From a virus, in the IMG/VR virus record IMGVR_UViG_3300047409_000574, positions 62,256 to 126,255 of that record: a stretch of DNA of 64,000 bases, one strand, 5' to 3'. The translations under genes and the position numbers were made by a program. Below the pieces are notes generated by a model. It made no database searches. It saw only the letters and a program-made list of their open reading frames with translations, and was not told the origin of the DNA. This document shows positions 2 to 55,283 of this stretch, piece after piece (position 1 is the first letter of the stretch; the number at the start of each line of letters is the position of its first letter).

Positions 2-3000
2 ACGGCGGATGCTGCGCGGGAGAACCACTACAACTTTGTGCGCAAGAACAACGACCAGCGCGGCAGGCCGATGTACGAGGTGCCGACGGCGGAGGATGAG
101 CAGCGGGCGAAGGACGCGCTCGACTGGGTGCGCACCACGCTCGCGCCGAAGCAGAACAAGTCGGAGTTCGAGCACAACATGGCGGCGATGACGAGCGGGT
201 CGCATGTGCCGGAGCGCGGGGAGGGGATCGTCGCCTACGTGCCGGTCGCGCACGCGAAGGCGCTGGAGAAGGAGATCGTGCTCCAGCGCGAGCAGACAGC
301 ACGCGGCACGTCGGAGCATCTCGGCACGGTGAAGGAGCGCTTGAAGCTGCGGCTGACGGTGGAGGCGGTGTTCGAGCGCGAGGGTGACTACGGGGTGACG
401 TACATCACCCGGATGGCCGACCCGGACGGGAACATCGTCAAGTGGTTCGGCTCCTACCCGTTGGAGCAGGGCAAGACCTACGAGGGCATGTGGGGGGTGA
501 AGAAGCACGACGAGTACAAGGGCGGCAAGGAGACGGTCGTGACCCGGCCGACCAAGCTGGAGATGGTTGTCGAGGACACCGGCGAGAAGGGTGACGCGCC
601 GGTGCGCTACGAGGGCGACTTCCTGGAGCGCCGGGCGCAGCGGGATGCGGCTGCTGCCGCCCTGGCGACCGGGGGGCCGGTGCATGCGCCGTCGGAGTTC
701 ATCACGTTGCCGAAGTCGGGCAAGCTTCGCGCGCCCGCGATGGAGGCGCTCGCGGCGCTCGATTCGTTGCTGGTGATTCCGCCGATGCATGGGCCGATTC
801 CGGTGAAGGCGACGGCGGGCAAGAACACGCGGGGTGGCTATGCGCGCAGGCCGGATGCGGATGCTCCGCGCGCGCCGGTTTGGGAGGGGCCGACGGTGCG
901 TATGACGGGCTTCGGCAAGGGCCGCTCGAACCGTCCGGCGAAGCTCGCGTCGGAGATCGCGGTTGGTGACGTGATCGTGTTGGCGGCGGGCTACTACGCG
1001 CCGGTGACGGCGACGAGCCAGGAGGAGCACGAGATCGGGTTCGGGCGTGAGCCGGTGATGAAGGCGCATATCACGATCGACCGGGGCGAGGGGGGCAAGC
1101 CGAACCTCCAGGAACTCACGTACAAGCCGGACGAGTTGATCCCGTTCCAGTGGGCACCGGCCGCGGCGGATGTGCCGGAGCATCCGACGTTGTATCCGAA
1201 GGAGATCAGGGTGTCGGTCTCGGATGACAGGGACACCGACTCGGCGCTGGCAACGCTGATTCACGAGATGGGCCACTACATCGACAACCAGGCGTTCCGT
1301 AACTACCCGCGGATGGCGGGGTTCGCGACCGACCATGCGGGCTTCCGTGTGAGGGGGGATGAGAAGGAACGCCGTGAGGCGGTCGAGCGGATGCGCGCTG
1401 CGGGCCAGAAGGGCGTCGATCTGTTGGAGCTTTACGATGCGGAGGAGACACCGTTGTCGGCGTGGTTGGAGGCGGTGCGGGACAGCCCCGAGGCCGAAGG
1501 GTTGCGCACCGGCGTGTCGTACGCGGAGGCGGCCACGCACAAGTATTTGCTTTCGCCGAAGGAGTTGTGGGCGCGCTCGTTCGCCCAGTGGGTGGCGACC
1601 CGTTCCGACAACCCGGCGCTCAAGGCGTGGCTGGTCTCGTTGCAGAACCAGCCGGACACGCACATCGTGCAGCACAAGCGTTACGACCGGGTGGCGCACG
1701 CGAACGTGCTGGTGCCGGTCGAGGAGAAGCGGCCGAACTATCTGCTGTTGCGCCAGTGGTCGGATGAGAACTTCGTGCCGATCGGCGAGGCGATGGACGT
1801 GCTGTTCGAGCGTCTACACTGGTTGCGTGGCGGAGCCGGGAGTGGACGAGACGGGGACACCGATCCTGTTGCCGGACGGCTCGTTGGAGGCCGATCCGGT
1901 GGAGGAGTTGGTGATCGACATGCTCTGGTCGCCGACGCTCTCGCCGTCGCCGGACTAGGCGAGAAGGGAGGCTCCGGCCTGCCGGACACGGTGTGGTTGG
2001 AGACATCGCCGTCCGATCTCGGGCATGCGCGCATGAAGGATCGGGTGCCGTGGAGCTACGACCCGGCGAGCGGCCGGTTGTTCATCGGCTCGGGCGGTTC
2101 GGATCACACCGAGCTAACGCGGGCGATGCGCGCGCAGGGTCACGAGATGGGCGACGACGAGTGGAACGGCGTGTGGATGATGGACGGCCCGAGCGTGGGG
2201 GTGCATGTGCACTCGAACCTGGGGCCGCCGGACTTCGGCAACCCGCTGGGTCACGATGAGCCGTTGCCGCCGGTGCTGGCGTCGCGGTTGCGCCAGGCGT
2301 TCGGCGGGCCGCTGCACGGGCACGCTGGCGGGGAGAAGGGTGATCCCGGTGTCGCGTCGCTCAAGGGCGACGGGCCGTTGCCGATGGAGAATGGTCTCTA
2401 CTACCGCCTACACACGGTGGGTGCGCCGTTCGGGCCGGAGCATGCGAGCACGGTGCCGCCGATCCCGGAGGAGGTGGCCGCGTCGAGCGAGGTGATGCGT
2501 GGACTCGCGACGCCGAAGCCGGGCTACTCGGCGTTCTGGAATCCGCATCATCTCGTCCAGTACGCGGAGGCGATGAGTTGGGAGCCGACGAAGGTGCGGG
2601 TGCTCGCGTTCCGGGGCACACCGATCGGCGAGGGCAGCGATGGTGAGCCGCGCGTGATGCCGGACTCGACGAAGGTCGAGGCGCGGATGGGCTGGCAGAA
2701 GTTCGTGGATCGCACCGACTGGACGCCGAACGGCTACGGGATGTGGCACGAGCACACGTGGGGCGATGGGCCGGACGGTCGGATCGCCGACGACGGCTAC
2801 CGCACGCTCGCGCAGCTAGGTGACAAGGGCGACATGACGAACCCGGAGTTGCTCGGCGGCGCGTGGACGTTGCCGATCACGTACGACCGCGACGGTCTCC
2901 ACCATGTGGTGCCGATCGACGCGACGATCGCGCCGGACGTGCAGCGTGCGATCGACCGGGGCTTCACTACGGTGGCGTCGTGTTCGGGCTTGAAGGCCGA

Positions 3001-4399
3001 TCATCCCGAAGGGGCGGGCAACCCGCACGCAGGCCGGTCGGGCGACGGCTATCTGGCGTTCCCGTTGGCGGCTCACTCACCGGAGCAGATTGCGGCGATC
3101 GAGCACGCCGCGAAGCAGGCTGGGTTTGCTCATCTCTACGCCGACGTTTACGGCGAGCCTGGGCTGATGGTCTACACGCCAGACATGAAGCTGCGCCAGC
3201 GCGCGTACCGTCAGGCGAACGAGGCGGTTGGGCTGGCCCCGGATGCCGACCCGCCCTCTGGGGCTGCGTTCAACGAGTGGTATGCAGCACGCGTGGCCGC
3301 GTTCAAGAGGCTGGGTGTCGGCCGGGCGACCGACGAGGAGGTCGCACCGGCGTGGCGGGAGTTCTTCGACACGCTGAACGGTGCACGCCAGCCGGTGGAC
3401 TACGCGAGCATCCCGCCGGTGCTCTATCACGCGGCGCGTGACTCGACCGCGAGCGGCGGCGGCGATCCGGTGGTGCATGTCGAGGTCGCCCCGGCGGCGG
3501 CCGAAGCTGGCGCGCTGATCCAGGCGGGACACGAGCGCGCCGGTGTGGTGGAGATCACACGTGACGCGCTCGCGGGGAGCGATCTTATCCGGCTGCCGGA
3601 CGGTTCGATCCAGGTGCGCGGCAACCCGAACTTCGGCGGCGAGAAGGGCGACCCGAGCCTGCCGGAGTCCACACGGGTCGAGCCGACCGACGAACTGCTC
3701 GCGGAGATCGAGAAGCTCCAGGCGAGCGTCGGCGGGCGCGGCAAGCTCGGCAGGCAGGGCGACACGGATGATCTGCTCGGCGAGGTGCTGAGTGACATGC
3801 GTTACGCGCGACGGCTGCCGGAGTATGCGGCGGCGTACAAGTTCTACGAGCGGCGCACACCGGATGGCGGGATCGCCGGGCTGATGGTGCTGGCCGACCC
3901 GCCGCTGAACGTGCCGGAGCACCGGCTGCCTTACGGCATGACGTTGGACAACACGGTTGTGCTCGGGCGGCTGGTGAGTGTGCAGCCGGGCACCGGCACG
4001 ATCATGCTGCGCGACGCGGCCCGCTACGCGGCCGAGCATGGCAAGGGGCTGGTGTTGTGGTCGCTGCCGGGCGCGCGCGAGTTCTACCGCAAGGCGGGCA
4101 TGAGCGAGGAGAAGGACGGCTGGGTTTACAAGGAGTGGTGGACGGCGGAGCAGGTCGCCGACCACACACGTAGGCTGGTCGAGAGCCTTGACGAACCTGC
4201 GGTAGCAACCGCCGCAGGCAGCGCGGACGGGGACAGGGCCGGGGGGTTCAGTCCCGTCCGCGCGCTACTTGAAACGCTCGGGGTGCCGCCGGAGGAGGAG
4301 GAGGAAACACTGGTGAAGCTGCTGCTGCTCGGCGAGGGGCGGGAGCGGTTCATGCGGGAGTGGTGCGGGGAGGCCGGGGTGGACTTCGCCGTTTTGTGA
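2..4399 (+). CDS. Polyvalent multidomain protein, 5'-partial: OB-fold-like, HEXXH zincin metallopeptidase, unknown domain, ART-like, 'TVASCSG' domain, GNAT acetyltransferase
   Basis: The frame of ORF 38..4399 is open from base 2. Motifs: LIHEMGHYID plus ELWARSFAQW (zincin); YYR..GYSAF..DGEP (ART-like); GTGTIML..AREFYRKAGM (GNAT). Domains are separated by G[ED]KG at 581, 1958, 2330, 2819 and 3638. Confidence 0.8.
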   Translation, partial: TADAARENHYNFVRKNNDQRGRPMYEVPTAEDEQRAKDALDWVRTTLAPKQNKSEFEHNMAAMTSGSHVPERGEGIVAYVPVAHAKALEKEIVLQREQTARGTSEHLGTVKERLKLRLTVEAVFEREGDYGVTYITRMADPDGNIVKWFGSYPLEQGKTYEGMWGVKKHDEYKGGKETVVTRPTKLEMVVEDTGEKGDAPVRYEGDFLERRAQRDAAAAALATGGPVHAPSEFITLPKSGKLRAPAMEALAALDSLLVIPPMHGPIPVKATAGKNTRGGYARRPDADAPRAPVWEGPTVRMTGFGKGRSNRPAKLASEIAVGDVIVLAAGYYAPVTATSQEEHEIGFGREPVMKAHITIDRGEGGKPNLQELTYKPDELIPFQWAPAAADVPEHPTLYPKEIRVSVSDDRDTDSALATLIHEMGHYIDNQAFRNYPRMAGFATDHAGFRVRGDEKERREAVERMRAAGQKGVDLLELYDAEETPLSAWLEAVRDSPEAEGLRTGVSYAEAATHKYLLSPKELWARSFAQWVATRSDNPALKAWLVSLQNQPDTHIVQHKRYDRVAHANVLVPVEEKRPNYLLLRQWSDENFVPIGEAMDVLFERLHWLRGGAGSGRDGDTDPVAGRLVGGRSGGGVGDRHALVADALAVAGLGEKGGSGLPDTVWLETSPSDLGHARMKDRVPWSYDPASGRLFIGSGGSDHTELTRAMRAQGHEMGDDEWNGVWMMDGPSVGVHVHSNLGPPDFGNPLGHDEPLPPVLASRLRQAFGGPLHGHAGGEKGDPGVASLKGDGPLPMENGLYYRLHTVGAPFGPEHASTVPPIPEEVAASSEVMRGLATPKPGYSAFWNPHHLVQYAEAMSWEPTKVRVLAFRGTPIGEGSDGEPRVMPDSTKVEARMGWQKFVDRTDWTPNGYGMWHEHTWGDGPDGRIADDGYRTLAQLGDKGDMTNPELLGGAWTLPITYDRDGLHHVVPIDATIAPDVQRAIDRGFTTVASCSGLKADHPEGAGNPHAGRSGDGYLAFPLAAHSPEQIAAIEHAAKQAGFAHLYADVYGEPGLMVYTPDMKLRQRAYRQANEAVGLAPDADPPSGAAFNEWYAARVAAFKRLGVGRATDEEVAPAWREFFDTLNGARQPVDYASIPPVLYHAARDSTASGGGDPVVHVEVAPAAAEAGALIQAGHERAGVVEITRDALAGSDLIRLPDGSIQVRGNPNFGGEKGDPSLPESTRVEPTDELLAEIEKLQASVGGRGKLGRQGDTDDLLGEVLSDMRYARRLPEYAAAYKFYERRTPDGGIAGLMVLADPPLNVPEHRLPYGMTLDNTVVLGRLVSVQPGTGTIMLRDAARYAAEHGKGLVLWSLPGAREFYRKAGMSEEKDGWVYKEWWTAEQVADHTRRLVESLDEPAVATAAGSADGDRAGGFSPVRALLETLGVPPEEEEETLVKLLLLGEGRERFMREWCGEAGVDFAVL
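1827..1958 (+). CDS. Nested out-of-frame 43-aa acidic protein (MAEPGVDETG...SPSPD), candidate immunity protein
   Basis: GTG..TAG ORF with strongly G/C third positions, while the host frame here reads like an off-frame G/R/V-rich linker. TACACT (1815-1820) lies 6 nt before the GTG. The stop overlaps the first base of the GEKG linker codons. Confidence 0.6.
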   Translation: MAEPGVDETGTPILLPDGSLEADPVEELVIDMLWSPTLSPSPD

Positions 4400-6699: not shown

Positions 6700-6728
6700 T
6701 TGCAGGTTGCAACGCTGGTGGCTATCGT
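6700..6728 (+). promoter_or_regulatory. Sigma-A-like promoter of groES
   Basis: TTGCAG-17 nt-TATCGT, upstream of the GAGAGGT Shine-Dalgarno and the ATG at 6757. Confidence 0.45.
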
Positions 6729-6756
6729 TCGAGTTCCGACCTTGAGAGGTAGAGAG

Positions 6757-7041
6757 ATGAGTTTGCGACCTTTGGCAGACCGCGTTCTCGTGTTGCCGGA
6801 AACCGGCGCGGAGAATGTCGGCGGTGTGTTCATCCCGGAGCAGTTCCGGGACAAGCAGAAGATGGGCATGGTGAAGGCGGTCGGCCCCGGCCTGCCGGAC
6901 GAGCAGGGCAGGCGGGTGCCGCCGCAGGTCGAGGTGGGCGACAAGGTGCTCTACTCGCAGTACGGCGGGATCGACGTGGAGATCGACGGGGTCAACTATC
7001 TCGTGCTGCGAGAAGGAGATTTGATCGGGGTGGTGGAGTAA
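6757..7041 (+). CDS. groES: Co-chaperonin GroES (Cpn10), copy 1
   Basis: LRPLADRVLV, GGVFIP, VKAVGPG, VEVGDKVLYSQYGG and YLVLREGDLIGVV are canonical Cpn10 motifs. Confidence 0.95.
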   Translation: MSLRPLADRVLVLPETGAENVGGVFIPEQFRDKQKMGMVKAVGPGLPDEQGRRVPPQVEVGDKVLYSQYGGIDVEIDGVNYLVLREGDLIGVVE

Positions 7042-7651: not shown

Positions 7652-9631
7652 GTGAGCGCTGCCCTAGAGGAAGGCATCTGGGATGCCCTGCGGCACCCTC
7701 GCGGGCGCGGCGGCCAGTGGTCGAAGGTGTTGGGCAAGGTGGAGGCGGCGGCCGGGGAGAAGGGTGACCCGGCCGTCGTCTCGAAGCTCAAGGCGAAGCT
7801 GGAGCCGCCGCCGATCGTTCGGCGTGTCAAGAAGCTGGAGACGACGGAGGCGTTTCGGCGCGGCCGTCGCAGCCTGGGCTACATGCGTCAGTCGGGCGTG
7901 CATGGGGACGAGTTCATGTTCGACCTGGCGACCGATCAGGGGTTCGCGGGTCGGCCGCACGCGGTGAGCGAGGAGGAGCTACAGGCGCATATCGACGCGG
8001 GGGCGGTCGAGATGTGGCGGGGCACGTCGGATCGTTCGTACGCGGACACGTTTCTGACCGGGACGTACTACGCGCTTGCGCTCGACACGCCCATTCCGAC
8101 CCCGAGCGGGTGGAGCACGATAGGGCAGATCGAGGCTGGGGATCAGGTATTCGACGCCGATGGCAAGCCCACGGAAGTCGTGGGCGTGACGCCTGTGTTC
8201 ATGGATCGGCCATGCTACGCAGTCCGGTTCGACGATGGCTCCGAGATTGTTGCTGACGCCGACCATCAGTGGTTGGTATCCACCCGTCCTAGTCGCGAAC
8301 ATGCGCGACGGTGGAAAAACCCCGACAGGCGGATCGTGATGGGAAGGGCGAGGGCGATGCGAGGCGCTGGGGTGTTGCTTCGCGAGATTGGTTCCGAGCT
8401 TGGAATCACGGTGGACGCAGCGTGGAGTGAAGGATCGCACGGCGGTGATCGCGTCGTGACGACGGCGGAGATGGCTGCAACGATCGCGAGTCGGTACGCG
8501 GTTGCGAATGTCGCGCCGCTCAGGCTGCCGGATGCGGCCCTGCCAATCGACCCGTATGTGCTGGGCGCGTGGCTTGGCGACGGCACGGCCGCTAACGCCA
8601 CCTTCACGTGCGAGGACGAGGAGATCGTCTGGCAGATTAGGGCCGCAGGTCATGCTGTTCAGCGTCGGGGCGAGTCGGGCTACGGGTGTCCGAGATGGCA
8701 GATTTTCGACCTTCGCAGGAAGTTGGATTCAGCATCGCTTCTCGACAACAAGCATGTGCCGTCAGAGTATTTCCGGGCGTCGGCCGAACAGCGTCGTGCC
8801 CTCATCTGCGGGCTAATGGACACAGACGGAACGGTGTCCAAGTTCGGCCAGTGTGAGTTTGGCAACGCGAATCGCGCGCTGGCTTACGGCATGGCCGAAC
8901 TGCTTGCCTCTGTTGGCATCAAGGTGCGAATTCTTTGCCGCGACGACGACAGGAGGAGTCGTAAGCCCTTCTTCCGGGTGATGTTCTCGACCCATTCACC
9001 CGTGTTTCGACTTCGGCGCAAGCTTGATCGCCAACAACTAGGGCGGGCCGAGGTGGATAGCAAGATCGGCAGGCACTCCGTTGTCGAGGTGCGCCAGGTT
9101 GAGAGTGTGCCTGTCAGGTGTCTGGAGGTTGCGTCCCTGTCGCACCTGTTCGTTGTCGGCAGGGCGATGATTCCGACGCACAACTGTGGGTTGGGCTTCC
9201 GCGGCAACGGCATCTACACGGCGTCGGGTGCGCGCGCGGAGCAGATGGCGCGGGCGTACGCGACTGCACCGCCGACACGCGGGATCGCGGCGAGGTCGGA
9301 TTCGCCGACTGTGGTGCGGATGGCGTTGCACCGGGACGCGAAGGTGGTCGAGTTCGAGGATGCGGCGCGGAGCGCCCGGCACGCCCATCAGGCGGCGATG
9401 GTGGTGGGGGAGAAGTCGGGCGGTGCGGGCGGCACACCGGATCAGGTGCGGGCGGAGGTCTATCGTGATCCGTCACGCTGGGCGCTCGCGAACGGCTATG
9501 ACGCGGTGCGGGTGACGCAGGCGGATGGCAGCGACGAGCACATCGTGTTGAACCGGACGGCGTTGCTGGTCTCGACGGAGTTTCGGGAGGCCGGGCAGAG
9601 CGTGATGCGTGGGGCGAGGCACGCGGCGTGA
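7652..9631 (+). CDS. HPRGRGG-tagged ADP-ribosyltransferase-like protein interrupted by an intein
   Basis: N-terminal LEE..HPRGRGGQW and GEKGD. The exteins join as MWRG..TGTYY|CGLGFRGNGIY..GYDAV..EHIVLNR, an ART-fold pattern. Confidence 0.75.
   Translation: MSAALEEGIWDALRHPRGRGGQWSKVLGKVEAAAGEKGDPAVVSKLKAKLEPPPIVRRVKKLETTEAFRRGRRSLGYMRQSGVHGDEFMFDLATDQGFAGRPHAVSEEELQAHIDAGAVEMWRGTSDRSYADTFLTGTYYALALDTPIPTPSGWSTIGQIEAGDQVFDADGKPTEVVGVTPVFMDRPCYAVRFDDGSEIVADADHQWLVSTRPSREHARRWKNPDRRIVMGRARAMRGAGVLLREIGSELGITVDAAWSEGSHGGDRVVTTAEMAATIASRYAVANVAPLRLPDAALPIDPYVLGAWLGDGTAANATFTCEDEEIVWQIRAAGHAVQRRGESGYGCPRWQIFDLRRKLDSASLLDNKHVPSEYFRASAEQRRALICGLMDTDGTVSKFGQCEFGNANRALAYGMAELLASVGIKVRILCRDDDRRSRKPFFRVMFSTHSPVFRLRRKLDRQQLGRAEVDSKIGRHSVVEVRQVESVPVRCLEVASLSHLFVVGRAMIPTHNCGLGFRGNGIYTASGARAEQMARAYATAPPTRGIAARSDSPTVVRMALHRDAKVVEFEDAARSARHAHQAAMVVGEKSGGAGGTPDQVRAEVYRDPSRWALANGYDAVRVTQADGSDEHIVLNRTALLVSTEFREAGQSVMRGARHAA
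8072..9184 (+). mobile_element. Class 3 (Ala1, WCT-motif) intein with LAGLIDADG homing endonuclease, 371 aa
   Basis: Starts ALALDTPIPTPSGW; block B ADADHQW; block F VPVRCLEV; ends IPTHN followed by Cys+1. LGAWLGDG and CGLMDTDG motifs. Lower GC3 than the flanks. Confidence 0.93.
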
Positions 9632-9858: not shown

Positions 9859-11743
9859 CTCGGCGACGCTCGACGCGCAGGTGTCGTATTCGAGGAAGGC
9901 TGCGGCGCTGATGAATAGCGAGGCGGTGCTCGGGCTGCCGCTCGACCAGCTTTGGGCTGTTCGCGACGCGCTCGCGCAGGCGCGCACGGAGGATGATCTG
10001 CCGTCGCATGTGCGCGTGCTGTTCGACGAGCAGACGCACGCGAAGATTGTGGAGGCTCGCTACACGGAGCGGCTGCATCCTCGTGGCCGGGGTGGGAAGT
10101 GGATCAGGGGGATGCACCGGATCGAGCAGGTGGCGTCGATGGCGAGCACGGCGACGAAGCTCAAGGTCGGCAAGGGTCGCAAGGGTCGCAAGGCAAAACC
10201 GGTGGGCTGGTTGGAGGCGGTGCGGGAGCATCAGAAGGTGCCGGTGCTCAAGCAGAGCGATCTGGTGCGGCGGCGGCGGCAGGCGTTCTCGACTCCACGC
10301 GAGGAGTGGAAGCTGGTCTCGACGGGCGACGGGGATGTTTACGCTCAGGGCGACGCGACGTTGACCTGGCGGTCGAGGAAGATCAACGACAACGTCGAGT
10401 GGGGGTATGAACTTCGGATCGACGGTGGAGAGCCGCGCTGGATTGAGAGCTATCCGGGCGACGGCATCTACGACGTGGCTCGACGGGCGATGCCGGAGCG
10501 GCGCTCGGAGTCCGACAAGTTCATGGACGAGTGGTACGGCGGCCCTGGCCGACCGGGCTTGTATCAGCGGGTGAGCGGTGATCCGGGCGAGCAGTTCGTG
10601 GCGCAGCACGAGCGGATCATGGATGCGGGCGCACGGATCGACGCGGAGATCGTCCGGCGGATGGGTGACGCGGTGAAGCGGCATCGGGAGGCGGTCAAGG
10701 CGGAGCGGGATGCGAAGAAGGCGGTGGTGCTGGCCGAGAAGCATGAGGAGGTGCTGGCGTTCACCGGGATCGGCCGGGAGATGCTCGGGTGGCTGGAGCA
10801 CGACCCGGAGCAGTTGACGCCGGATGCGCTACGCGAGCGGCTGCGGCTCTACAACCGTGAGGCGGTGAAGCTGGCGCGCAACCAGGACAAGTCGGTGATG
10901 ACGACGGCGAACGCGCAGTTGTGGGACATGCACGAGTACGACCGGTTCAACGTCGCGGAGCGGAACGGCATCGACTTGCAGGCCGCGCACGACGCAGGCT
11001 ACGAGGCGCGCGTTGTGGTGTTTCGCGCGGCCGATGAGCGGCGGGCGGCCGAACAAGACCTTGCCGACAGGCGGCGCGCCGCGACCTGGGAGGTGCTCGG
11101 GGAGACGCGTCGGTTCGGCAACGAGTTCGAGATCACCCACGACTACTCGCCGGACGTGATGCACTACGACGAGACGACTGCGAAGGCGCTCGACTTCGTC
11201 GCGGTGTTTCTGCCGCACGACTGGATTGTGGACTCGAACCGGTCGGAGTATCGGCTGCTGGTTGGCGAGGCGGATCAGCGCGGGAGCTACGGGCATGCAC
11301 GGTCGTTCAACGTGCAGACCGGTGTGGGGACTTCGGTGTTGACCGGCAACCGTGAGCAGAAGGATCACGGGGCGATGTTGCCGCGTGGGGCGGGGGTGGC
11401 GTTGCACGAGATGGTGCACCGCGCGGAGTACGTCCATGACGGGATCAAGGGGGCGGAGTGGACGTTCTACCAGCAGCGGGTTTCGCCGGGCGTCAACCGC
11501 ACATGGGAGACGCCGGAGAGGCTGATCGACTTGATCCCGAACTCGGGCTACGAGGAGCACGAGATGGCGCGCCGCGATCACTTCACCCATCCCTACTCCG
11601 GGAAAAGTTACGGGGATGACATGGAGTCAGCGTGGGAGCTTCTGACGATGGGCGTGCAGGACTTGGCGACCGGCGAGCACGGGATCATCGACAAGGACGA
11701 GGAGTACCGGCAGTTCGTCCTGGGCGCGCTCGCCATTCTCTGA
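9851..11743 (+). CDS. HPRGRGG-tagged protein with C-terminal HEXXH metallopeptidase-like domain
   Basis: Likely start is the GTG at 9851. IVEA..HPRGRGGKW at about 10076; ALHEMVHRAE..YSGKSY..WELLTMG. Confidence 0.75.
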   Translation: MADSATLDAQVSYSRKAAALMNSEAVLGLPLDQLWAVRDALAQARTEDDLPSHVRVLFDEQTHAKIVEARYTERLHPRGRGGKWIRGMHRIEQVASMASTATKLKVGKGRKGRKAKPVGWLEAVREHQKVPVLKQSDLVRRRRQAFSTPREEWKLVSTGDGDVYAQGDATLTWRSRKINDNVEWGYELRIDGGEPRWIESYPGDGIYDVARRAMPERRSESDKFMDEWYGGPGRPGLYQRVSGDPGEQFVAQHERIMDAGARIDAEIVRRMGDAVKRHREAVKAERDAKKAVVLAEKHEEVLAFTGIGREMLGWLEHDPEQLTPDALRERLRLYNREAVKLARNQDKSVMTTANAQLWDMHEYDRFNVAERNGIDLQAAHDAGYEARVVVFRAADERRAAEQDLADRRRAATWEVLGETRRFGNEFEITHDYSPDVMHYDETTAKALDFVAVFLPHDWIVDSNRSEYRLLVGEADQRGSYGHARSFNVQTGVGTSVLTGNREQKDHGAMLPRGAGVALHEMVHRAEYVHDGIKGAEWTFYQQRVSPGVNRTWETPERLIDLIPNSGYEEHEMARRDHFTHPYSGKSYGDDMESAWELLTMGVQDLATGEHGIIDKDEEYRQFVLGALAIL

Positions 11744-13662: not shown

Positions 13663-13704
13663 CGGGGGCTTGTTGGAGTCAGCGCTGATGGCTACGATGG
13701 GGGC

Positions 13705-13860: not shown

Positions 13861-13908
13861 CAATCAGCGTTGACGACCCGGCACGGTTCCAGTACCGTGC
13901 CCTAGGTC

Positions 13909-24049: not shown

Positions 24050-24050
24050 G

Positions 24051-44321: not shown

Positions 44322-44324
44322 GGG

Positions 44325-47785: not shown

Positions 47786-48119
47786 CGAAGGTCGTGTATT
47801 TCTGCGGCGGCGAGCGGCAGGAGGGCTGGGCGAACAAGCTCGGGTTCTCGTGGTGCCCGAAGTGCGGCAAGTCGCTTCGGGTCGTGCTGCCGTGACTTGG
47901 TTCCCGATCGTGGGCGCGGTGGTGCTGTACGCGCTGTTCATGCTGGCCGCTGGCATCCCGGCGGGGGGCGGCGTGCTGGCCGGGGTCGTGCTCGGCGCGG
48001 TGGTGCTCGCCGCGATTCTGGAGCATCGTCAACAGGGCTGATAAGCGGCGTCCTGGGCAGACTTTCAGCCTGGGCGTTACGCTTACCCATCGTGACCGGA
48101 CGCTGACCCAGGGAGCCGT

Positions 48120-51100
48120 GTGTCCGACGACTTGACCCTTCACCCTCTGCTCGCTTGCTTCGTCGGTCGGCTCCAGGAGGCGGGCCTGGATCGGACTGGG
48201 GCGCTGGCGGTGGCGTGCACGAGCCTGGCCCGCTGGGAGAAGTCCGGGAAGGGCGATGCGGGGGAGCGTCTGCCGGAGCGGGCGCGGGCGCTGGTGAAGC
48301 GGGCGCTGTACGAGTTCGAGGGGCTGCACGGCTTCCACGATGGGCTGCTGGAGGCTGTGCGGGCGGTGGGGGATACACCGTTGACGCCGGAGGCTGCACG
48401 GGAGGTGGTGGAGGCTGCGACGACGCATGCGGCGCTGGCGCTCGGGCTGCTGGAGACGGTGCGGGATCGGGACGAGGTGGTGCAGGGCCGGGCGATGGAG
48501 ACGGCGGCGAAGCTGCTGAACCTGGAGTTCACCGGCACGGCGCAGGACGAGGTTTCGCGGATGCGCCAGGCGCTCGACCAGGCGTTGTGCGCCGACAAGG
48601 TTTTGATCGAGGGGATCGGCCATCGGTTCGAGGAGTTGCTGCATCCGCGTGGGCGGGGCGGCGAGTGGATCAAGGGTTTGCAGAAGCCGGGCGACAAGGG
48701 CGGCGGCGATCTGCCGCCGGAGGCTGGGAAGTTTTACAGCGCGCACGTTCAGGGTGCGCAGGCGAGGCTCAAGATTCTGCGTCCGCATCCGCGCAGACCG
48801 GGCTGGTGGGAGGCGGAGAATGTCACGACGGGCGGCCGGGTGCGCGTCACGCCGGACATGCTCACGCCGGAGTCGGGCGACAAGGGTGGCGGCGAGTCGG
48901 GCAAGCTCGACCGGGGCGCGCCGGTGCGGCTGCGCGGCGGCCCGAAGAAGTGGAGCGTGTTCGAGGATCACGGCAACGGCTACGTGACGATCTCTCACGG
49001 TCAGGCGTTCGACCAGGTGAAGAAGAAGGTGCTGCGTCGGGACTTGACTCCGTGGGGTGGCGACAAGGGCGGCGGCGGTGTTCGCAAGCAGATCACTCGG
49101 ATCAACCTCGTCCCAGGGGGCGAGGGAGACAAGGGCGATCCGGGCAGGCAGCGCACGGGCGACCCGAAGATCGACAAGCTGATCGAGGAGTTCCTGCGGA
49201 CGCCTATGGGCGACTGGACTAGCGACGACAACACCTACGAGGCGTTGCGTGATCCCGAACGCTCGCACGGTGCTTGCCAGGAGGTCACGGATCACTTTGT
49301 GGAGTTCGCGAAGGCGCGCGGCTTCAAGGCTTACTCCACGAACACCGACATGGAGGAGATGGGCTACACGCCGCAGATCAAGCCGTTCGGTGAGGTGGGC
49401 TTCGATGACCACGGCGAGATGCAGTACGGCTTCTATCCCGAGCACACGATCGCCACGATCGTTGTGGACGATCCCGCGTACAAGTACGGCCGCGAGTTCT
49501 ACATCGACTTCACCGCGAGCCAGTACGGGTACAAGGAGCATCCGAAGGTGACCGAGTCGCTCGACGAGGAGACCTACTGGCGGCTCTGCTCGGACGTGGT
49601 GGCGCTGCGCACGGTGATGCTGTTCGAGGCCGACGACCGGGAGCAGCGCAAGCTGCGGGCGAACGCCGCCGCGCTCGTCGAGCGGATGCGCTACCTCGCG
49701 CCGGGCGAGTTCGACGCGGTGCCACGGGTGACCGACGAGATGCTGGCCGAGTCGGTGGAGGTGACGTTCGAGCCGGTGCTCAACATTCTGTTCGAGGCCG
49801 GGCAGGCGTTGGCGGCCAAGCCGCCGCCGGTGAGTTCCGATCCGGTGACGCGGGCGCATCAGGTGACCGGGACGAAGCCGGGTGAGACCGGTGTGCCGAA
49901 CGCGGACTTCGAGAGAGTCCACCCTCGTTCGCGCGGGGGCGTGTTCGCGAAGAAGGGCGACGGGCTGGGGGCGCAAGCGTCGAACCCTACGGTGAAGCAG
50001 TTGCAGGCCCGCCTGTCGGCGATGGGCTACCGGGTGGTGCAGGACGGCCAGTTCGGCACGGTGACCGAGCAGGCGGTCAAGGCGTTCCAGAAGGATCACG
50101 GGCTGCCGGAGTCGGGGCATGCGGATGCGCGGACGGCGGCGGCGATGCGTGATCCGGGCGCGGGCGTGCACAACCGGCAGACCGCGGGCACGGCTGCTGG
50201 AACGGCTGCTGGAAAGAAGGGTTCCAGTAGCGCTTCGAGTAGCTCGACCGGTGTGTCGCTCGGCAAGGCGGGGATGTTGCGCCGCGGGGACGGGATGGGG
50301 CCGGGCGCGAAGCCGTCGAACGAGGTGGCGGTGCTCCAGCAGACGCTCGACTCGATGGGCTACGAGGTCGGGGTGGGCGGCGCGGACGGCCGGTTCGGGG
50401 AGGACACGCAGGCGGCGATCGAGATGATCCAGCGGCGGTACGGGCTGCGGGTGGATGGGGTGGTGGGGTCGCAGACCGCCGACCTGATCCACCGGCTGAT
50501 GACTGCGCGGGCGAAGCAGGGCAGGCAGGACGGGCAGTTGTCGGTGGACGAGATGCCGTCGAAGGGCGTGACGCCGAACAAGGTTCCGAAGGGCACGTCG
50601 GGCCGGAGGGCGGCGAAGAAGAAGGCTGCGCCGAAGCTACCGAAGCAGGTGACGGTGGCGGCTGCACCGGCGGCTACGGGGGGTCAGAGTTTGAGCGCGG
50701 GTTCGCGCCTACAGCATGCGGCATCTACCGCAGAGGAGGAGCAGGACATGGAGGACGTGGCGCTCGTCGAGGTGACCTTTGATCCATCGAAGCACGCACG
50801 CGGGCGGGGCGGCAAGTTTGCGGAGATGCTCGGGCATGCAGCCGAGGCGTGGAAGTCGGGCAAGGCGTATCTCGACAACTCGGGGAACTACCGGCTCAAG
50901 AGTGAGGGGGGGAACAGTCGCAGAGGTCAGGTCGCGCCGTGGAACAAGGCGGTCAAGTCTGCGTTCCCGAAGCACGACGACTTCGCGCGTGCGATCGACC
51001 CTGCCGCCGCCAAGTCACACGATGAGGCGATGGCGCGACTGAACAGGTTCGAGGTGAAGTCGGTCGGTGGGGAGCACCATGTGATCGACAACCAGGATGG

Positions 51101-54100
51101 CGGTCGGATCGTTGCGAAGCACAAGTCGTTCGCGGGCGCGCGGAAGAAGGCGCAGAAGTTGGGCGACGCGCAGCCGGGCGGGCGCGACGAGCAGGAAGCG
51201 AAGTGGCGCGAGATTCGCGGCGAGCAGCCGCGCAGTCCTGCGACGACGCGCTTGCAGTCGGATGCGATCGACCGGAGCCGTCGGGTGCACAACGCGAACG
51301 TCGCGAAGGACGAGGCTGCGGCGGGCAAGTGGCATGGACAGGATGTGTCGAGCGGCAAGCTCGTGCCGGTAGAGGAGATGCACCTCCTGTCGGATGAGCA
51401 GGTGCAGCAGTTGATCGACCGGGCGACCAATCCCAGGACGCAGCAGGCTCCGGCGGAGTGGGCGTCGGCGGTCGCGCGCGAGGCGAACAAGCGGAAGGCC
51501 AAGTTGCGGGAGGCGAGCTTCTCCTCTGGCGGGTTCGACACGAACTCGCCGGTGCAGCAGAAGTCCGGCGGGGTCAACGGCCTGAACGGTGGCGGCGCGA
51601 ACGGCGAGGCGCTGCCGGGCGGGCGCACGTCGGGCACCGATGACGTGTGGGGTGGCTCACGGGCGACGAGGCCGCCTGGTCTGCGCGAGTCACCGGCCGA
51701 CAGCTTCGCATCGTGCGCGACGTGCGTGCATCACAACGGGGCGCGGCTGTGCGCGCTCTACAGCGCCGGGACTGACCCGGACGATCTCTGCGACTCGTGG
51801 TTCACGCTGACGCCGGTCGAGGCGCGGACGACGGCGACGATGCTGCTGGCACGGTTCGACCGCGGCGAAGGCGGGCAGGTGGATGAGGCCGCGCGCGCCG
51901 ACCTGATCCGGGACGGGTGGGCACGGCTTGAGGAGAGCGTGCTTGACTTGCCCGAGACCGCGTCGGTGGCGCGCGGCATGCTCTCGCAGGGGGCCACGGT
52001 CGCCCAGGCGCGCGTCGAGGCGACGCAGGTGGTCGCCCGGCGCGTGCTTGACCGGGAGCGCCGTGGTTTGTTCGGCCATGATCTGGAGGAGGCCGCCGGG
52101 GCGAAGAAGGTGAAGTGCCCGAAGTGCGACACGGTGCAGGCGGCGACGAACAAGGCGTGCGTGAAGTGCGGGAAACCGATGCAGGGGATGGGCGGCAAGC
52201 TGAACGAGTCGCTGCTCAACGCGGCCGGTGGTGTGCTCGACGACTGGCTGGCCGAGAGCACGCTGACGGCGGAGGCACGGAAGAAGCTGCCGAAGGACGC
52301 GTTCGCTGTCCCGCCGGACAAGTACCCGATCCACGATGAGGCGCATGCGCGGAACGCGCTCGCGCGGGTGGCGCAGCATGGTTCGCCGAAGGAGAAGGCG
52401 ATGGTTCGGCGGAAGGTCAAGCAGCGGCATCCGAAGATCGTGCAGGAGGCGCTCGACCTGATCGCGTGCGAGGTCTGCGCGCTCGACGAGGATTCGCAAG
52501 GGCTGGCCTGGTCGTTGTTGGAGGCGGCTGACTCGATGGTCAAGGCGACGGTGCACGAGCCGGTCGGCAAGCCGGGCGGGAAGGGGCTGTGGGGCCACAA
52601 GGGGATGCAGCTTCCGGCGTACATCCAGCACATCGCGAACGATCTGCGTGAGAAGCGCGGCATGACTACATCGCGGGCGGTCGCGACGGCTATCGCGGCG
52701 GTGAAGCGGTGGGCGGTCGGTGGCGGCAAGGTTGATGCGACTACGCACGCGGCGGCGATCAAGGCCGTCGCGGAATGGGAGGCGCTCAAGGCCGCATCGC
52801 ATGCGCATCTCAAGGAGTCGGGTGTGTTGAGCGAGGCGGGCATGGTGATCCACTTCGACCCGCATCTGCATCCGCGTTCGCGCAAGGGCGAGTTCATCGA
52901 CGTGCTGGGCAGGCTGATGCAGGGCCATCGCGGCGGCGAGGTGACCTTGCCGCACGGGGTGAGTGTGCGCAAGCAGGGCGGGCTGCTGGTGGTGCGCGAC
53001 GGGGGCGGCCCGGCGGGGGTGTATCGCAACCCGGCCAAGGCGGCGGCGAAGGCGCTCAAGCAGACGGGTATCCCGTCGCCGAAGCACACGAGCGCGGACA
53101 TGGGGATTCGCACGCCCCGGTTCGCGATCGCGTTCGACAAGGGCGATCCGAGCACGCCGGGCTGGACGAAAGTGGAGGCGGCGACGGGCAGGTTCCCGGC
53201 GCATCACCGGACGTTGCCGAACGGCCGCTCGGAGATGTTGACGAAGCTGCCGGGGGAGGATCACTGGCGGCACATCGGCATGACCCGGACGGGGAACGTG
53301 GATGCGTTGCGGGCGGTGCCGGACGCGGAGGCGCGGCAGATGATCGCGGGGGAGCAGGGCGGTCATGTGGTGCATCTCCAGTCGGTGGGCTTGCATCCGG
53401 CGAAGCCCGCGTCGGAGTTCGTGCCGGGCGATCATGTGGTCTACAACTTTGGTGTCACGGGCGAGGTGACGAAGGTGGAGCCGAAGGGCAACTCGGTGGC
53501 GCTTACGACGCGCAGCGCGGACGGGAGGGAGTTCACGTCTACGAAGCGCGGCTCGACGTTGTTGGGCCATTCGCTGCGTTCGTACAACGGGGCGGAGAAG
53601 GGCGGCGGCGAGTTCCGCGTGTCGTGGTATGACGGCCGTCCGCCGGAGGGCCACACGTGGGGGGTCGGCGACAAGGCGTTCTGGAACGGCCGGAACGTGG
53701 AGATCATCAGCAAGCTCGGGACGGTTTCGGGTGCGGAGCAGAACTACGGGATCAAGTTCGAGGACGGGCATGTGAACTGGGCGAAGCACAGCGAGCTTTC
53801 GCTGCCGTACACGGGCGACAAATCAGGTGGCCGGGGCGGCTCGTGGGGCGACACGGAGGGCGGCCAGGACGCGACGCGTGGCAGGGAGGCTCCGATCCGC
53901 TCGGGCGCGCAGCCGATTCCTGCGGCGACGTTGAGGGGCGGCGGCCTGGATGAGATTCGCCACACGGTCGTCTATCGCAAGCAGGACGGCTCGTACAGGG
54001 AGACGGGCGTCAGCGCGCGGGACTCGAATCACGCGCGCGAGCTTGCGGCCCGCATCATCCCGGAGAACGCCACGATCACCCAGGCGTTCCCGGAGAGCGA

Positions 54101-55283
54101 CTCGACCAAGTCGGTCGGCGAGATGACCGACGTGGAGCTTCGGACGGCGCTTGGCACGATCAGCGACAGGCTGGTGATGCATGCGCAGAGCGGCGATCGG
54201 CAGGGCGCGAATGCGGCGACGATTGTCAGCGGGCAGATCACGCAGGAGATGGAGCGCAGGCGCGGCGACGAGGCGCAGGCGCAGGCGCAGGCGCTTGCGA
54301 ATCGGATGGCGTGGGGCGAGAAGGGCGGCGGCAGCTACGCGCAGCAGGCCGAGACCGAGATGTGGGATGCGATTGCCGGGCAGGACGCGAGGCCGGTGGT
54401 CGCTTCGCCGCCGCTTCCCGATGCAAGCGAGTTGAAGCACATGTCGGACGCTCAGATCACGGACTTGGTCGAGCGAGTGATCCCGCAGGCTCGTGGCGCT
54501 GTCCACGATCAGAGCGTGCCGGGCGAGTTCCGCCAGAAGCTCGCGGCCGAGGCGAACAAGCGCAACACGCGTCGCTACCAGGGCGGCGGCGGCGACAACG
54601 TGGAGGCGCAAGGGACGATGAAGCCGACGCTGACCTCTGGGGGGTTCAGTCAGAACGCTCCGGGCTACGGCTCGCGCGGCTACGAGACGCCGAAGGGTCG
54701 GGTGACGTTGTCTCTCAACTCGATCCCGAAGGAGTGGATGATCGAGCACGGCTACGCCGTCAAGACCGAGCACAAGGCGACGGCTGCGTGGGCCGGTCGT
54801 CAGCCGAGCAAGGCGTACACCTCGATCGACTACAAGACGGGTCTCGACGTGGAGCGCGTCTGGATGCACTACCTCACCGGCGCGGTGCCGAAGAACCCAC
54901 TGGAGGGGACGAACAAGGCGGCGCAGTTCCGCTACACGGGCAAGGGCGGCACGAAGGCGACGCGTGCGGCGCTGGCGCGCAGGCTGACTGAGGCTTCGCT
55001 TCCAGCGCTGGCGGTTGTGCTCGGGCTGACCGAGTACCGCCAGCATGCGATCGTCGGACGGCTCGATCGGATCGAGGACACGGCGGTGACGATGGTGCGG
55101 CTGCCGGTGGCGGAGTTCATCGTCGAGGCCCGCGCCAGCGACAACGATCTGGTGGCGGCGACGGTCGAGGTGCTGCGCGGTCGGCTGGCGGAGGTGGCCC
55201 CGGACGCTGACCGGCGGCTCCAGGAGGCGGCCCCTGGGGATGAGAGGAAGCTCTACGCGACGATTTGCGGGGCGCTCGCGTAG
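48120..55283 (+). CDS. Giant 2387-aa head-associated polyprotein: 4 HPR tags, papain/transglutaminase-like domain, 2 peptidoglycan-binding domains, zinc ribbon, head-accessory-like and SH3-like domains
   Basis: Tags at 48642, 49920, 50793 and 52869. GACQEVT..EHTI..YIDFTASQY (C-H-D). LQARL..DGQFG..TEQAVKAFQ and LQQTL..DGRFG..DGVVG. ARKKLPKDAFAVP..YPIHDEAHARNALAR. More than 15 [LIV]xE[AS] sites. Confidence 0.8.
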   Translation: MSDDLTLHPLLACFVGRLQEAGLDRTGALAVACTSLARWEKSGKGDAGERLPERARALVKRALYEFEGLHGFHDGLLEAVRAVGDTPLTPEAAREVVEAATTHAALALGLLETVRDRDEVVQGRAMETAAKLLNLEFTGTAQDEVSRMRQALDQALCADKVLIEGIGHRFEELLHPRGRGGEWIKGLQKPGDKGGGDLPPEAGKFYSAHVQGAQARLKILRPHPRRPGWWEAENVTTGGRVRVTPDMLTPESGDKGGGESGKLDRGAPVRLRGGPKKWSVFEDHGNGYVTISHGQAFDQVKKKVLRRDLTPWGGDKGGGGVRKQITRINLVPGGEGDKGDPGRQRTGDPKIDKLIEEFLRTPMGDWTSDDNTYEALRDPERSHGACQEVTDHFVEFAKARGFKAYSTNTDMEEMGYTPQIKPFGEVGFDDHGEMQYGFYPEHTIATIVVDDPAYKYGREFYIDFTASQYGYKEHPKVTESLDEETYWRLCSDVVALRTVMLFEADDREQRKLRANAAALVERMRYLAPGEFDAVPRVTDEMLAESVEVTFEPVLNILFEAGQALAAKPPPVSSDPVTRAHQVTGTKPGETGVPNADFERVHPRSRGGVFAKKGDGLGAQASNPTVKQLQARLSAMGYRVVQDGQFGTVTEQAVKAFQKDHGLPESGHADARTAAAMRDPGAGVHNRQTAGTAAGTAAGKKGSSSASSSSTGVSLGKAGMLRRGDGMGPGAKPSNEVAVLQQTLDSMGYEVGVGGADGRFGEDTQAAIEMIQRRYGLRVDGVVGSQTADLIHRLMTARAKQGRQDGQLSVDEMPSKGVTPNKVPKGTSGRRAAKKKAAPKLPKQVTVAAAPAATGGQSLSAGSRLQHAASTAEEEQDMEDVALVEVTFDPSKHARGRGGKFAEMLGHAAEAWKSGKAYLDNSGNYRLKSEGGNSRRGQVAPWNKAVKSAFPKHDDFARAIDPAAAKSHDEAMARLNRFEVKSVGGEHHVIDNQDGGRIVAKHKSFAGARKKAQKLGDAQPGGRDEQEAKWREIRGEQPRSPATTRLQSDAIDRSRRVHNANVAKDEAAAGKWHGQDVSSGKLVPVEEMHLLSDEQVQQLIDRATNPRTQQAPAEWASAVAREANKRKAKLREASFSSGGFDTNSPVQQKSGGVNGLNGGGANGEALPGGRTSGTDDVWGGSRATRPPGLRESPADSFASCATCVHHNGARLCALYSAGTDPDDLCDSWFTLTPVEARTTATMLLARFDRGEGGQVDEAARADLIRDGWARLEESVLDLPETASVARGMLSQGATVAQARVEATQVVARRVLDRERRGLFGHDLEEAAGAKKVKCPKCDTVQAATNKACVKCGKPMQGMGGKLNESLLNAAGGVLDDWLAESTLTAEARKKLPKDAFAVPPDKYPIHDEAHARNALARVAQHGSPKEKAMVRRKVKQRHPKIVQEALDLIACEVCALDEDSQGLAWSLLEAADSMVKATVHEPVGKPGGKGLWGHKGMQLPAYIQHIANDLREKRGMTTSRAVATAIAAVKRWAVGGGKVDATTHAAAIKAVAEWEALKAASHAHLKESGVLSEAGMVIHFDPHLHPRSRKGEFIDVLGRLMQGHRGGEVTLPHGVSVRKQGGLLVVRDGGGPAGVYRNPAKAAAKALKQTGIPSPKHTSADMGIRTPRFAIAFDKGDPSTPGWTKVEAATGRFPAHHRTLPNGRSEMLTKLPGEDHWRHIGMTRTGNVDALRAVPDAEARQMIAGEQGGHVVHLQSVGLHPAKPASEFVPGDHVVYNFGVTGEVTKVEPKGNSVALTTRSADGREFTSTKRGSTLLGHSLRSYNGAEKGGGEFRVSWYDGRPPEGHTWGVGDKAFWNGRNVEIISKLGTVSGAEQNYGIKFEDGHVNWAKHSELSLPYTGDKSGGRGGSWGDTEGGQDATRGREAPIRSGAQPIPAATLRGGGLDEIRHTVVYRKQDGSYRETGVSARDSNHARELAARIIPENATITQAFPESDSTKSVGEMTDVELRTALGTISDRLVMHAQSGDRQGANAATIVSGQITQEMERRRGDEAQAQAQALANRMAWGEKGGGSYAQQAETEMWDAIAGQDARPVVASPPLPDASELKHMSDAQITDLVERVIPQARGAVHDQSVPGEFRQKLAAEANKRNTRRYQGGGGDNVEAQGTMKPTLTSGGFSQNAPGYGSRGYETPKGRVTLSLNSIPKEWMIEHGYAVKTEHKATAAWAGRQPSKAYTSIDYKTGLDVERVWMHYLTGAVPKNPLEGTNKAAQFRYTGKGGTKATRAALARRLTEASLPALAVVLGLTEYRQHAIVGRLDRIEDTAVTMVRLPVAEFIVEARASDNDLVAATVEVLRGRLAEVAPDADRRLQEAAPGDERKLYATICGALA

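Follow-up and report, generated by a model that had tools for sequence, protein, structure and literature searches.

A lysine-centred G[ED]KG[DG] motif recurs at cassette joins of giant myovirus proteins and may be a processing site

The virus record IMGVR_UViG_3300047409_000574 of IMG/VR is a single contig of 126,255 bp with 66.7% GC, which is classed as linear by IMG/VR and the completeness of which was estimated by CheckV at 91%. The stretch of DNA analysed here, referred to as the window, comprises 64,000 nucleotides and is the second half of that record (62256-126255); positions are those of the window unless the record or a protein residue is named. A few very long proteins encoded here carry recurrent copies of the pentapeptide G[ED]KG[DG], for which an earlier note, made from the sequence of the window alone, had suggested that it punctuates the domain boundaries of polyproteins. 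The largest of these proteins comprises 5277 amino acids (aa), and at least 12 separable homology blocks were identified in it. Its N-terminus matches a PHROG head-protein family (9.2e-29), the protein also matches phrog_2319 (3.1e-66), a LigT-type 2H domain (2_5_RNA_ligase2) was identified with 38.9 bits (cut-off 27), and segments resembling ART-PolyVal (27.9 bits, cut-off 31.2) and LPD1 (19.3 bits, cut-off 27) were found below threshold. Considering this combination of a head-protein N-terminus with LigT, ART-PolyVal-like and LPD1-like segments, the open reading frame (ORF) belongs with the polyvalent proteins defined by Iyer et al. 2017 (PMC5512222) and is linked to MuF. Its features within the window are listed below together with the whole ORF, whereby P0004 denotes a large relative with which it shares cassettes.

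Record 50821-66654, + strand: 5277-aa MuF-type polyvalent protein, directly after the portal gene, 14 motif copies
2..4399, + strand: C-terminal 1465 aa of the polyvalent protein, with 5 of the 14 copies
581..595, + strand: GEKGD at polyvalent residue 4006; a cassette in common with P0004 ends 8 aa further on, and the zincin block begins after 34 aa
683..1906, + strand: zincin metallopeptidase block, polyvalent residues 4040-4447, a candidate processing enzyme
1958..1972, + strand: GEKGG at polyvalent residue 4465, 18 aa past the end of the zincin block
2330..2344, + strand: GEKGD at polyvalent residue 4589, 15 aa before cassette B
2375..2818, + strand: cassette B, polyvalent residues 4604-4751
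2819..2833, + strand: GDKGD at polyvalent residue 4752, the exact C-terminal end of cassette B
3638..3652, + strand: GEKGD at polyvalent residue 5025; a cassette in common with P0004 begins at 5028, where GMGAGK stands in P0004

At all 13 positions where the earlier note had placed G[ED]KG, a long + strand ORF encodes G[ED]KG[DG] in frame, and six-frame translation of the window yields no further G[ED]KG. The whole record holds 22 copies, all of them on the + strand, in frame and within four proteins, namely the polyvalent protein (14 copies) and proteins of 659 aa (1), 676 aa (2) and 2387 aa (5); these four make up 26% of the proteome, yet hold 22/22 copies. The residue following G[ED]KG is D or G in each of the 22, whereby 15 read GEKG and 7 GDKG, and KGD occurs in 13 and KGG in 9. 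As background gene set, ORFs called with a crude caller of our own, not a curated annotation, were used (132 ORFs covering 82% of the record, 121 of them on the + strand). The supposed enrichment over a composition-matched background was borne out, as 1000 within-protein shuffles of the 80 window ORFs gave an expectation of 0.70 +/- 0.82 copies (maximum 5) against the 13 observed. For the record, whole-protein shuffles gave 1.33 copies against 22, and shuffles inside 30-, 15- and 10-residue windows gave 1.40-1.75 (1.75 for the 10-residue windows, in which the local composition is preserved), the highest count in any of the 4 x 300 record shuffles being 8. As a further control for composition, 11 alternative orderings of {G,G,K,E/D} were counted, which occur 0-11 times each, and the two most frequent of these, [ED]KGG (11) and GG[ED]K (7), share residues with the motif. 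For G[ED]RG just 3 copies were counted, though Arg is 2.3 times commoner than Lys, while GEKG (15) is the commonest tetrapeptide of the proteome; among pentapeptides GEKGD shares the first place with TGATG. The relaxed form [ED]K[GAS][DG] was observed 32 times against 6.8 +/- 2.8 expected, with 29 of these copies in five proteins, i.e., the four bearers of the strict motif and a Zeta-toxin-like protein of 672 aa. Variants had been proposed as well, and GEKS, GDKA, FDKG, AEKG and GDKS are indeed present, but GEQG (3 occurrences) has no tie to the motif.

Resemblances to well-known short sequences were considered and rejected. An integrin-type KGD does not fit, as KGD is found in just 13 of the 22 copies with KGG in the other 9, and the proteins are presumed to be internal to a bacteriophage. 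An acid-labile Asp-Pro bond was dismissed because Pro follows only 5/22 copies. Likewise, a collagen-like repeat was discarded, since there is no G-X-Y periodicity but just two triplets (G-E-K, G-D-x), Gly being found at position -3 in 2/22 and at +6 in 5/22 copies. Genuine collagen-like GATG/GPTG runs are encoded by tail-fibre-like ORFs (58254-58904 and record 13031-14281) and are unrelated to the motif.

The placement of the copies with respect to domains was assessed by several approaches. A HMMER search with 1200 aa of the polyvalent part of the window against 1.84 billion representative proteins delimited four blocks, given in query residues as A (1-~386, with the zincin signature HEMGHYID), B (~520-675), C (~690-860) and D (~965-1120), and the motif copies at query residues 388, 512, 675 and 948 mark the edges of these blocks. 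Block ends were also taken from BLASTP of the whole polyvalent protein against seven large relatives (42 local alignments), whereby 10/14 copies were found to locate within at most 8 residues of a block end, where random positions average 2.6 copies (P about 1e-4), and 10/14 copies lie outside alignment interiors, although these interiors cover 83% of the protein. Cassette B, which is bracketed by two copies, is particularly informative, as members of its family also exist as stand-alone proteins of 140-165 aa (about 40 among the best 150 matches). Twenty stand-alone or small homologs align to it. Homolog N-termini lie 10-15 residues before the conserved LPMENGLYYR, which is where GEKGD stands in the polyvalent protein, and the stand-alone homolog P0011 (164 aa) ends with ...DDGYRTLAQLG, the final G of which corresponds to the first G of the GDKGD at 2819. 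The AF2 model of cassette B possesses a core (residues 22-164) with predicted local distance difference test (pLDDT) values of 88-97, and the two motifs, at 15-19 and 178-182, have a pLDDT <50 and are located outside the folded core. A Foldseek search of this model against the PDB gave no match at E <= 0.001.

Block-edge placement, the bracketing of cassette B and the AF2 model hence agree with the proposed location at domain boundaries. The statement that most copies fall between recognisable domains holds for most window copies, but independent boundary evidence is lacking for those at 12703, 12820 and 54315. The further suggestion that the motif resides in disordered inter-domain linkers has to be split: the copies do sit at inter-domain joins, but a long disordered linker was rejected, as the flanks keep a normal hydrophobic content. 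The 12-residue flanks are rich in Pro (11% vs 6.3%; 0/5000 resamplings reach this) and hydrophobic residues are not depleted in them, which argues for a short join that abuts the end of a domain. If each copy of the polyvalent protein were cut, products of 929, 1082, 158, 347, 301, 253, 165, 16, 289, 468, 459, 124, 163, 273 and 250 aa would result. Two further observations concern the same ORF. Residues 197-469 form an intein-like insertion of ~273 aa in the MuF block (Intein_splicing 24.6 bits, below the cut-off), which is missing in P0004, P0006, P0007 and P0009, where alignments break off after 196 and continue from 470. Near the C-terminus (4300-4399) the alignment to P0008 (1051-1280) reaches the start of a Cys-containing domain, which is present in full in the 2387-aa protein (residues 344-503); as the polyvalent ORF stops at the start of this domain, it may be truncated relative to P0008.

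The other bearers of the motif and of its variants are encoded further downstream and comprise the following features.

7652-9631, + strand: 659-aa intein-bearing P-loop protein, 1 strict copy
7754..7768, + strand: GEKGD at residue 35 of the 659-aa protein, 20 aa after its N-terminal HPRGRGGQW
9407..9424, + strand: variant GEKSGG at residue 586 of the 659-aa protein
11632-13662, + strand: 676-aa protein, 2 strict copies
12703..12717, + strand: GEKGG at residue 358 of the 676-aa protein
12820..12834, + strand: GEKGD at residue 397 of the 676-aa protein; a GNAT match below threshold follows at 482-523
16195-18213, + strand: 672-aa Zeta-toxin-like protein, kinase domain 73.6 bits
18097..18114, + strand: variant GDKAGG at residue 635 of the 672-aa protein
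48120..55283, + strand: multi-domain protein of 2387 aa in which PG_binding_1 occurs twice; 5 copies of the strict motif and 3 of variants
48690..48704, + strand: GDKGG at residue 191 of the 2387-aa protein, 11 aa after HPRGRGGEW
48876..48890, + strand: GDKGG at residue 253 of the 2387-aa protein, closing a ~57-aa unit (...LTPES-GDKGG)
49059..49073, + strand: GDKGG at residue 314 of the 2387-aa protein, closing a second ~57-aa unit (...LTPWG-GDKGG)
49125..49139, + strand: GDKGD at residue 336 of the 2387-aa protein, 4 aa before homology to P0008 starts
53133..53150, + strand: variant FDKGDP at residue 1672 of the 2387-aa protein, aligned to FDPGDS in P0002
53592..53609, + strand: variant AEKGGG at residue 1825 of the 2387-aa protein
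53814..53831, + strand: variant GDKSGG at residue 1899 of the 2387-aa protein
54315..54329, + strand: GEKGG at residue 2066 of the 2387-aa protein

In the 659-aa protein the strict copy precedes the P-loop/intein region, inside which a LAGLIDADG_3 match (33.5 bits) identifies a second intein of the phage. For the 676-aa protein, the search for homologs returned only the protein itself. The first four copies in the 2387-aa protein are located between an N-terminal domain shared with P0002 (7-164) and the domain shared with P0008. A second recurrent motif, (L)HPRGRGG[KQE]W, was noticed at 7694-7714, 10076-10096, 16621-16641 and 48642-48662, i.e., in the 659-, 663-, 672- and 2387-aa proteins, with the weaker forms HPRSRGGVF and HPRSRKGEF at 49920-49940 and 52869-52889. 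Motifs of this type are likewise found in P0002, P0005, P0007, P0008, P0009 and P0012, and HPRDRxGxW in relatives from IMG/VR. In two proteins it stands 11-20 aa upstream of G[ED]KG, an arrangement resembling a tag followed by a cut site; no description of HPRG-type strings was found in the literature.

Comparison with related proteins revealed that the joins are marked in other lineages too, whereby each lineage uses a sequence of its own. Large relatives are few, with only a handful in a collection of 5.8 billion proteins, and the following were found to carry a recurrent motif.

P0004, 5592 aa: G[MAP][GS]AGK, 20 copies, GAGK being its commonest tetrapeptide
P0009, 2978 aa: G[ED]KSGG
P0153, 2920 aa: [ND][ED]K[ASL]DPG, 5 copies
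P0007, 2287 aa: G[LV]KADPG, 2 copies
P0006, 2412 aa: xKG[DG]xP

Lys is the one residue kept in each lineage's motif. P0004 and the polyvalent protein have at least nine cassettes in common, the order of which is shuffled; by BLASTP, for instance, polyvalent residues 1733-2010 correspond to P0004 4003-4275, 3075-3232 to 1640-1803 and 3538-4018 to 2231-2729, and the cassette at 3075-3232 is flanked on both sides by GMGAGK in P0004. The breakpoints of this alignment thus support an exchange of domains at the motif between homologous polyproteins, for which a check had been proposed in the earlier note. Where alignments overlap a motif position of the polyvalent protein (nine positions), the homolog possesses its own canonical motif at seven, with a degenerate K-containing form at 2514 and nothing at 4006; the join at 4589, for example, is GEKSGG in P0009 and GMGAGK in P0004. 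The 2387-aa protein has a single homolog, P0002. This contains three copies of GVKADPG as well as GVKGGGE, and GVKADPG is the flavour of the polyvalent protein P0007. As the regions concerned in P0002 and P0007 are non-homologous and nevertheless have the same motif, the flavour appears, as judged from these sequences, to belong to the phage and not to the protein.

In seven more distant relatives from IMG/VR, three of which lie on contigs 123-135 kb in length, the MuF block is part of proteins of 765-1875 aa and further cassettes are separate genes, and none of their ORFs of at least 500 aa has a recurrent Lys motif. Since relatives with separate cassette genes are devoid of it, the motif is linked to fusion into giant ORFs. 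Further searches added little: single-protein searches of IMG/VR gave nothing useful, GTDB genomes searched with the alignment A2 gave 45 pattern matches of which none was confirmed, and JGI metagenomes searched with P0009 gave 3 loci, all distant, of which L007 and L008 have no Lys motif. P0010 (2272 aa), which harbours three copies of cassette B, is without a Lys motif and carries [LM]RHFA[AGS]G at three apparent joins, a fourth RHFA being unrelated to these; the string may be another junction code.

Besides the zincin block listed above, several gene products of the phage were considered as enzymes that could act on the motif; they are listed here together with the neighbouring capsid protein.

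11405..11419, + strand: HEMVH of the 663-aa protein (9752-11743), the third site of zincin type, candidate enzyme
49149..49628, + strand: possible papain-like Cys-His-Asp domain, residues 344-503 of the 2387-aa protein, weak candidate enzyme
60439..61932, + strand: 497-aa ORF just upstream of the capsid gene, no motif copy, possible prohead protease or scaffold
62115-63443, + strand: major capsid protein (Phage_capsid_4, 112 bits), no motif copy

Three HExxH zincin sites are present in the phage, namely at polyvalent residues 1157 and 4233 and in the 663-aa protein. The site at 1157 adjoins the MuF block and is conserved in all relatives. The one at 4233 (HEMGHYID, 1262-1285) is a HEXXH with Asp three residues downstream, a feature given for phage-type metallopeptidases (MPTases) in passages of PMC5512222. 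The block that contains it is common to P0004-P0008, P0012 and P0017, and it matches no Pfam model and nothing below E 0.05 in a PDB sequence search. The HEMVH segment of the 663-aa protein is also found at the C-termini of P0005 and P0008. The papain-like domain shows homology to P0008 1226-1382, and Tox-PLDMTX/SseI was returned for it as an Atlas lead with a score of 0.89; the top rows of VIA-align for the low-confidence model were helical bundles on residues 142-220 and were set aside as not meaningful. With regard to the head genes, the 497-aa ORF matches phrog_29592 at positions 204-392 of 893, while the C-terminal part of the same family matches the capsid protein, and the latter matches only C-terminal parts of PHROG protease-capsid fusion families, including fusions annotated as 'head maturation protease'; a PDB sequence search with the 497-aa ORF gave nothing below E 0.05. 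As both products match different parts of the fusion families, comparison of their sequences suggests that the capsid gene and the 497-aa ORF are a split version of a fused protease-scaffold-capsid gene.

Whether the conserved entity is a peptide or a nucleic acid can be judged from the codons. The 22 copies are encoded by 16 distinct 15-mers, and the Gly codons at motif positions 1 and 4 match the genome-wide usage (chi-square p = 0.28 and 0.046), which together argue for selection on the peptide and not on a DNA site, just as had been proposed from synonymous variation. Within the peptide, the first, third and fourth residues never vary, the second alternates between E and D and the fifth between D and G, whereas the flanks are unconserved except for small residues just before the motif (-1/-2) and Pro after it (+1 to +4). 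On this basis an RNA-level signal, in which GAGAAGGG would be an internal Shine-Dalgarno-like site starting translation of downstream cassettes, is hardly credible: the coding sequence of the motif is purine-rich and codon +1 is GTG three times and ATG once among the 22, with GTG twice more at +3, but start codons thus follow a minority of copies only, the GGAGGT of the phage's ribosome-binding sites is missing from the motif, the alternation of GAG/GAC at position 2 and of GAC/GAT/GGC at position 5 defines amino-acid classes, not bases, and GMGAGK and KADPG of the relatives differ in nucleotide content. A recombination joint, i.e., a conserved coding sequence that provides microhomology for cassette shuffling between co-infecting relatives, was one of the mechanisms put forward in the earlier note and draws on the differing cassette order in P0004 with breakpoints at motifs and on the RecT-like and exonuclease proteins encoded in the record. 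Shuffling at joins is, however, to be expected anyway, because only such products fold, and the motif does not travel with the cassette, as lineages sharing cassettes have different motifs. With different motifs at the same joins, only about 10 of the 15 nucleotides fixed within the genome, synonymous sites varying as codon usage predicts and selection for future evolvability presumably being weak, a homology joint is very improbable.

Two further explanations operate on the peptide itself. Gly-rich joins are common in multi-domain proteins, and the motif could be a structural element of Gly, charge and Pro without a trans-acting reader, a stop-start signal homogenised by gene conversion that lets adjacent cassettes fold independently; its position right at the end of the preceding domain, followed by the Pro-rich sequence, would suit this. 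A passive spacer nevertheless fails to explain three invariant positions in 22/22 copies with free flanks, leaves the rarity of G[ED]RG and the single flavour in non-homologous proteins unaccounted for, and gene conversion should homogenise DNA, which the 16 different 15-mers contradict; a purely structural join is hence regarded as unlikely. Still somewhat less probable, yet kept from among the mechanisms originally listed, is a modification or cross-link site, whereby the invariant Lys would serve, e.g., as acyl acceptor for a transglutaminase-like enzyme or as target of another Lys-directed transferase and would be exposed at joins only because joins are accessible. Retention of Lys in the motif of every lineage, the possible papain/transglutaminase-fold Cys-His-Asp domain adjoining the four clustered copies in the 2387-aa protein and the ART-like domain in the polyvalent protein (below cut-off) speak for it. 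A modified Lys would, though, need to sit neither at the ends of stand-alone homologs nor once per join, the assignment of the papain-like fold is weak (the model has a mean pLDDT of 57), and no partner motif, Gln-rich or otherwise, was seen, no systematic search for it having been made.

Among the mechanisms first proposed, the protease cut site is the one favoured here. We lean towards the reading that the motif is a processing site for a co-evolving phage protease and that the giant ORFs are true polyproteins, as it is the strict pentapeptide with free flanks, the single copy per join and the matching ends of stand-alone homologs that this reading would account for, together with the sharing of one motif by non-homologous proteins and the replacement of the whole set in each lineage. 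The suggested mechanism assumes that the 5277-, 659-, 676- and 2387-aa proteins, and via its variant also the 672-aa protein, are made as polyproteins. A phage-encoded endopeptidase would recognise the Lys-centred motif at each cassette join, the scissile bond perhaps being located after the Lys by analogy, and release domain-sized products, which for the polyvalent protein would range from 16 to 1082 aa and mostly from 124 to 468 aa. Cutting would probably take place in, or en route into, the capsid, so that the products would be delivered with the DNA. Enzyme and motif would co-evolve, and as a consequence each related lineage would have one motif of its own at all joins. In a wider and more tentative form, it is proposed that a clade of high-GC myoviruses of ~125-135 kb possesses an ORF of up to 5,600 codons which is cut by a co-evolving phage peptidase at about 15-20 Lys-centred sites particular to each lineage, freeing stand-alone anti-host effectors, and that the code and the HPRGRGGxW tag direct other cargo into the same pathway.

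Several points weigh against processing. Cleavage at the motif is pure inference, and the same applies to the scissile bond, the enzyme and packaging. Capsid protein, 497-aa ORF and portal are without G[ED]KG; if the prohead protease were the enzyme, it would differ from those of the T4 and phiKZ types, for which the motif is common to shell and core proteins. Only about six lineages were compared and a common genome for P0002 and P0007 is not confirmed. In P0005 and P0008, which carry these zincins too, a recurrent motif is not obvious. In the polyvalent protein 4/14 copies are situated inside alignments and not at their ends, the join at 2925/2926 has no motif where P0004 has two, and the low flank pLDDT in the model of cassette B is partly forced, as the alignment behind it spans the core only. 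The AF2 model of the papain-like domain has a mean pLDDT of 57, its match to SseI (4g29) reaching Z 6.5 with a root-mean-square deviation of 3.9 over 102 aligned residues, and profile hidden Markov models of Peptidase_C58 (PF03543; six-frame over the record, 0 matches), Tox-PLDMTX (PF15645) and Peptidase_S78 have no match in the record at E <= 1.

Known systems offer partial parallels to the proposed processing. RNA viruses encode a protease that cuts their polyproteins at junctions with conserved residues; as would be the case here, one ORF gives many products and the junction code diverges with the protease between lineages, whereas the present virus is a double-stranded DNA (dsDNA) tailed phage, the relatives of which encode cassettes separately, and its products would be accessory or effector domains instead of replication and capsid proteins. 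In tailed phages, T4 gp21 cuts after L/I-x-E and the prohead protease of HK97 cuts its capsid protein after a Lys. The nearest parallel among phages is SPN3US, the prohead protease gp245 of which is described in PMC10052503 as cutting many head and ejected proteins after AXE. There, too, one phage has the same brief consensus in a number of head-associated or ejected proteins, which mature by being cut at it, and the consensus differs between phage groups, but the conserved residue is Glu and not Lys, and the prohead sites of large myoviruses mostly remove N-terminal propeptides and are shared by capsid, portal and core proteins, whereas here up to 15 cassettes would be separated within one ORF. 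A match in sequence comes from the papain-like proteases of the AvrPphB/YopT family (MEROPS C58), for which passages of PMC2708883 report cleavage after G-D-K with Gly at P1', both in self-cleavage and next to G-D-K in PBS1. The same tetrapeptide is present here (7 GDKG and 15 GEKG, with the variants GEKS and GDKS), but AvrPphB and its kin are type III effectors of plant pathogens, while the phage proteins have no Peptidase_C58 match at E <= 1; as no C58 domain is detectable in the record, the likeness is one of substrates only. In the PBS1 site Lys is followed by Ser, which the GEKS of P0009 resembles.

Polyvalent proteins themselves, as characterised in the main text of PMC5512222, share with the present ORF the MuF-linked giant architecture, LigT, ART-PolyVal-like and LPD1-like domains and a zincin of the HExxH-yiD type, and autoprocessing by the zincin was predicted there (Iyer et al. 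2017, PMC5512222). The word 'linker' is absent from that main text and no junction or cleavage motif is named in 12 of its 29 relevant passages, while the supplementary alignments could show joins. In the wider literature no junction-motif description was found for cleavage sites of polyvalent proteins in phage among the 20 papers listed of 966, searches for GMGAGK and GVKADPG found nothing, and GEKGD-like strings led to collagen or peptidome papers among the 25 listed of 68. That no description of the motif was known had been remarked at the outset, and none was found in the literature searched, a coverage light on subscription journals and without supplements.

The remainder of the record is that of a myovirus, the principal genes of which are given here.

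Record 2.7-20 kb: tail sheath, tape measure and baseplate genes
Record 42950-44764: large terminase
Record 48012-50267: portal, no G[ED]KG

By megablast no close relative was found among 50,697 deposited phage records, and tblastn against deposited phages gave only single-domain matches, all <60% identity. A Cpn10/GroES homolog is encoded at 6700-7041 (87 bits), and the accessory genes include a Ku-like protein as well as RecT-like and exonuclease genes (record 40591-41577 and 22780-25794).

Many phages and conjugative elements encode polyvalent proteins, and for these it has only been predicted (PMC5512222) whether they act whole or cut, and at which places. The Lys-centred junction code proposed here is akin to known phage protease-site codes or to viral polyproteins and, being read from sequences, is as yet unproven. 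Such a code would define exactly, and in a testable manner, where the products of about 15 functionally uncharacterised domains begin and end, it could help to divide the giant ORFs of other phages into domains, and it would offer a simple assay for the discovery of the enzyme. If the co-evolution of code and enzyme holds true, dsDNA phages would possess a counterpart to the polyprotein processing of RNA viruses, from which orthogonal pairs of proteases and sites could be obtained.

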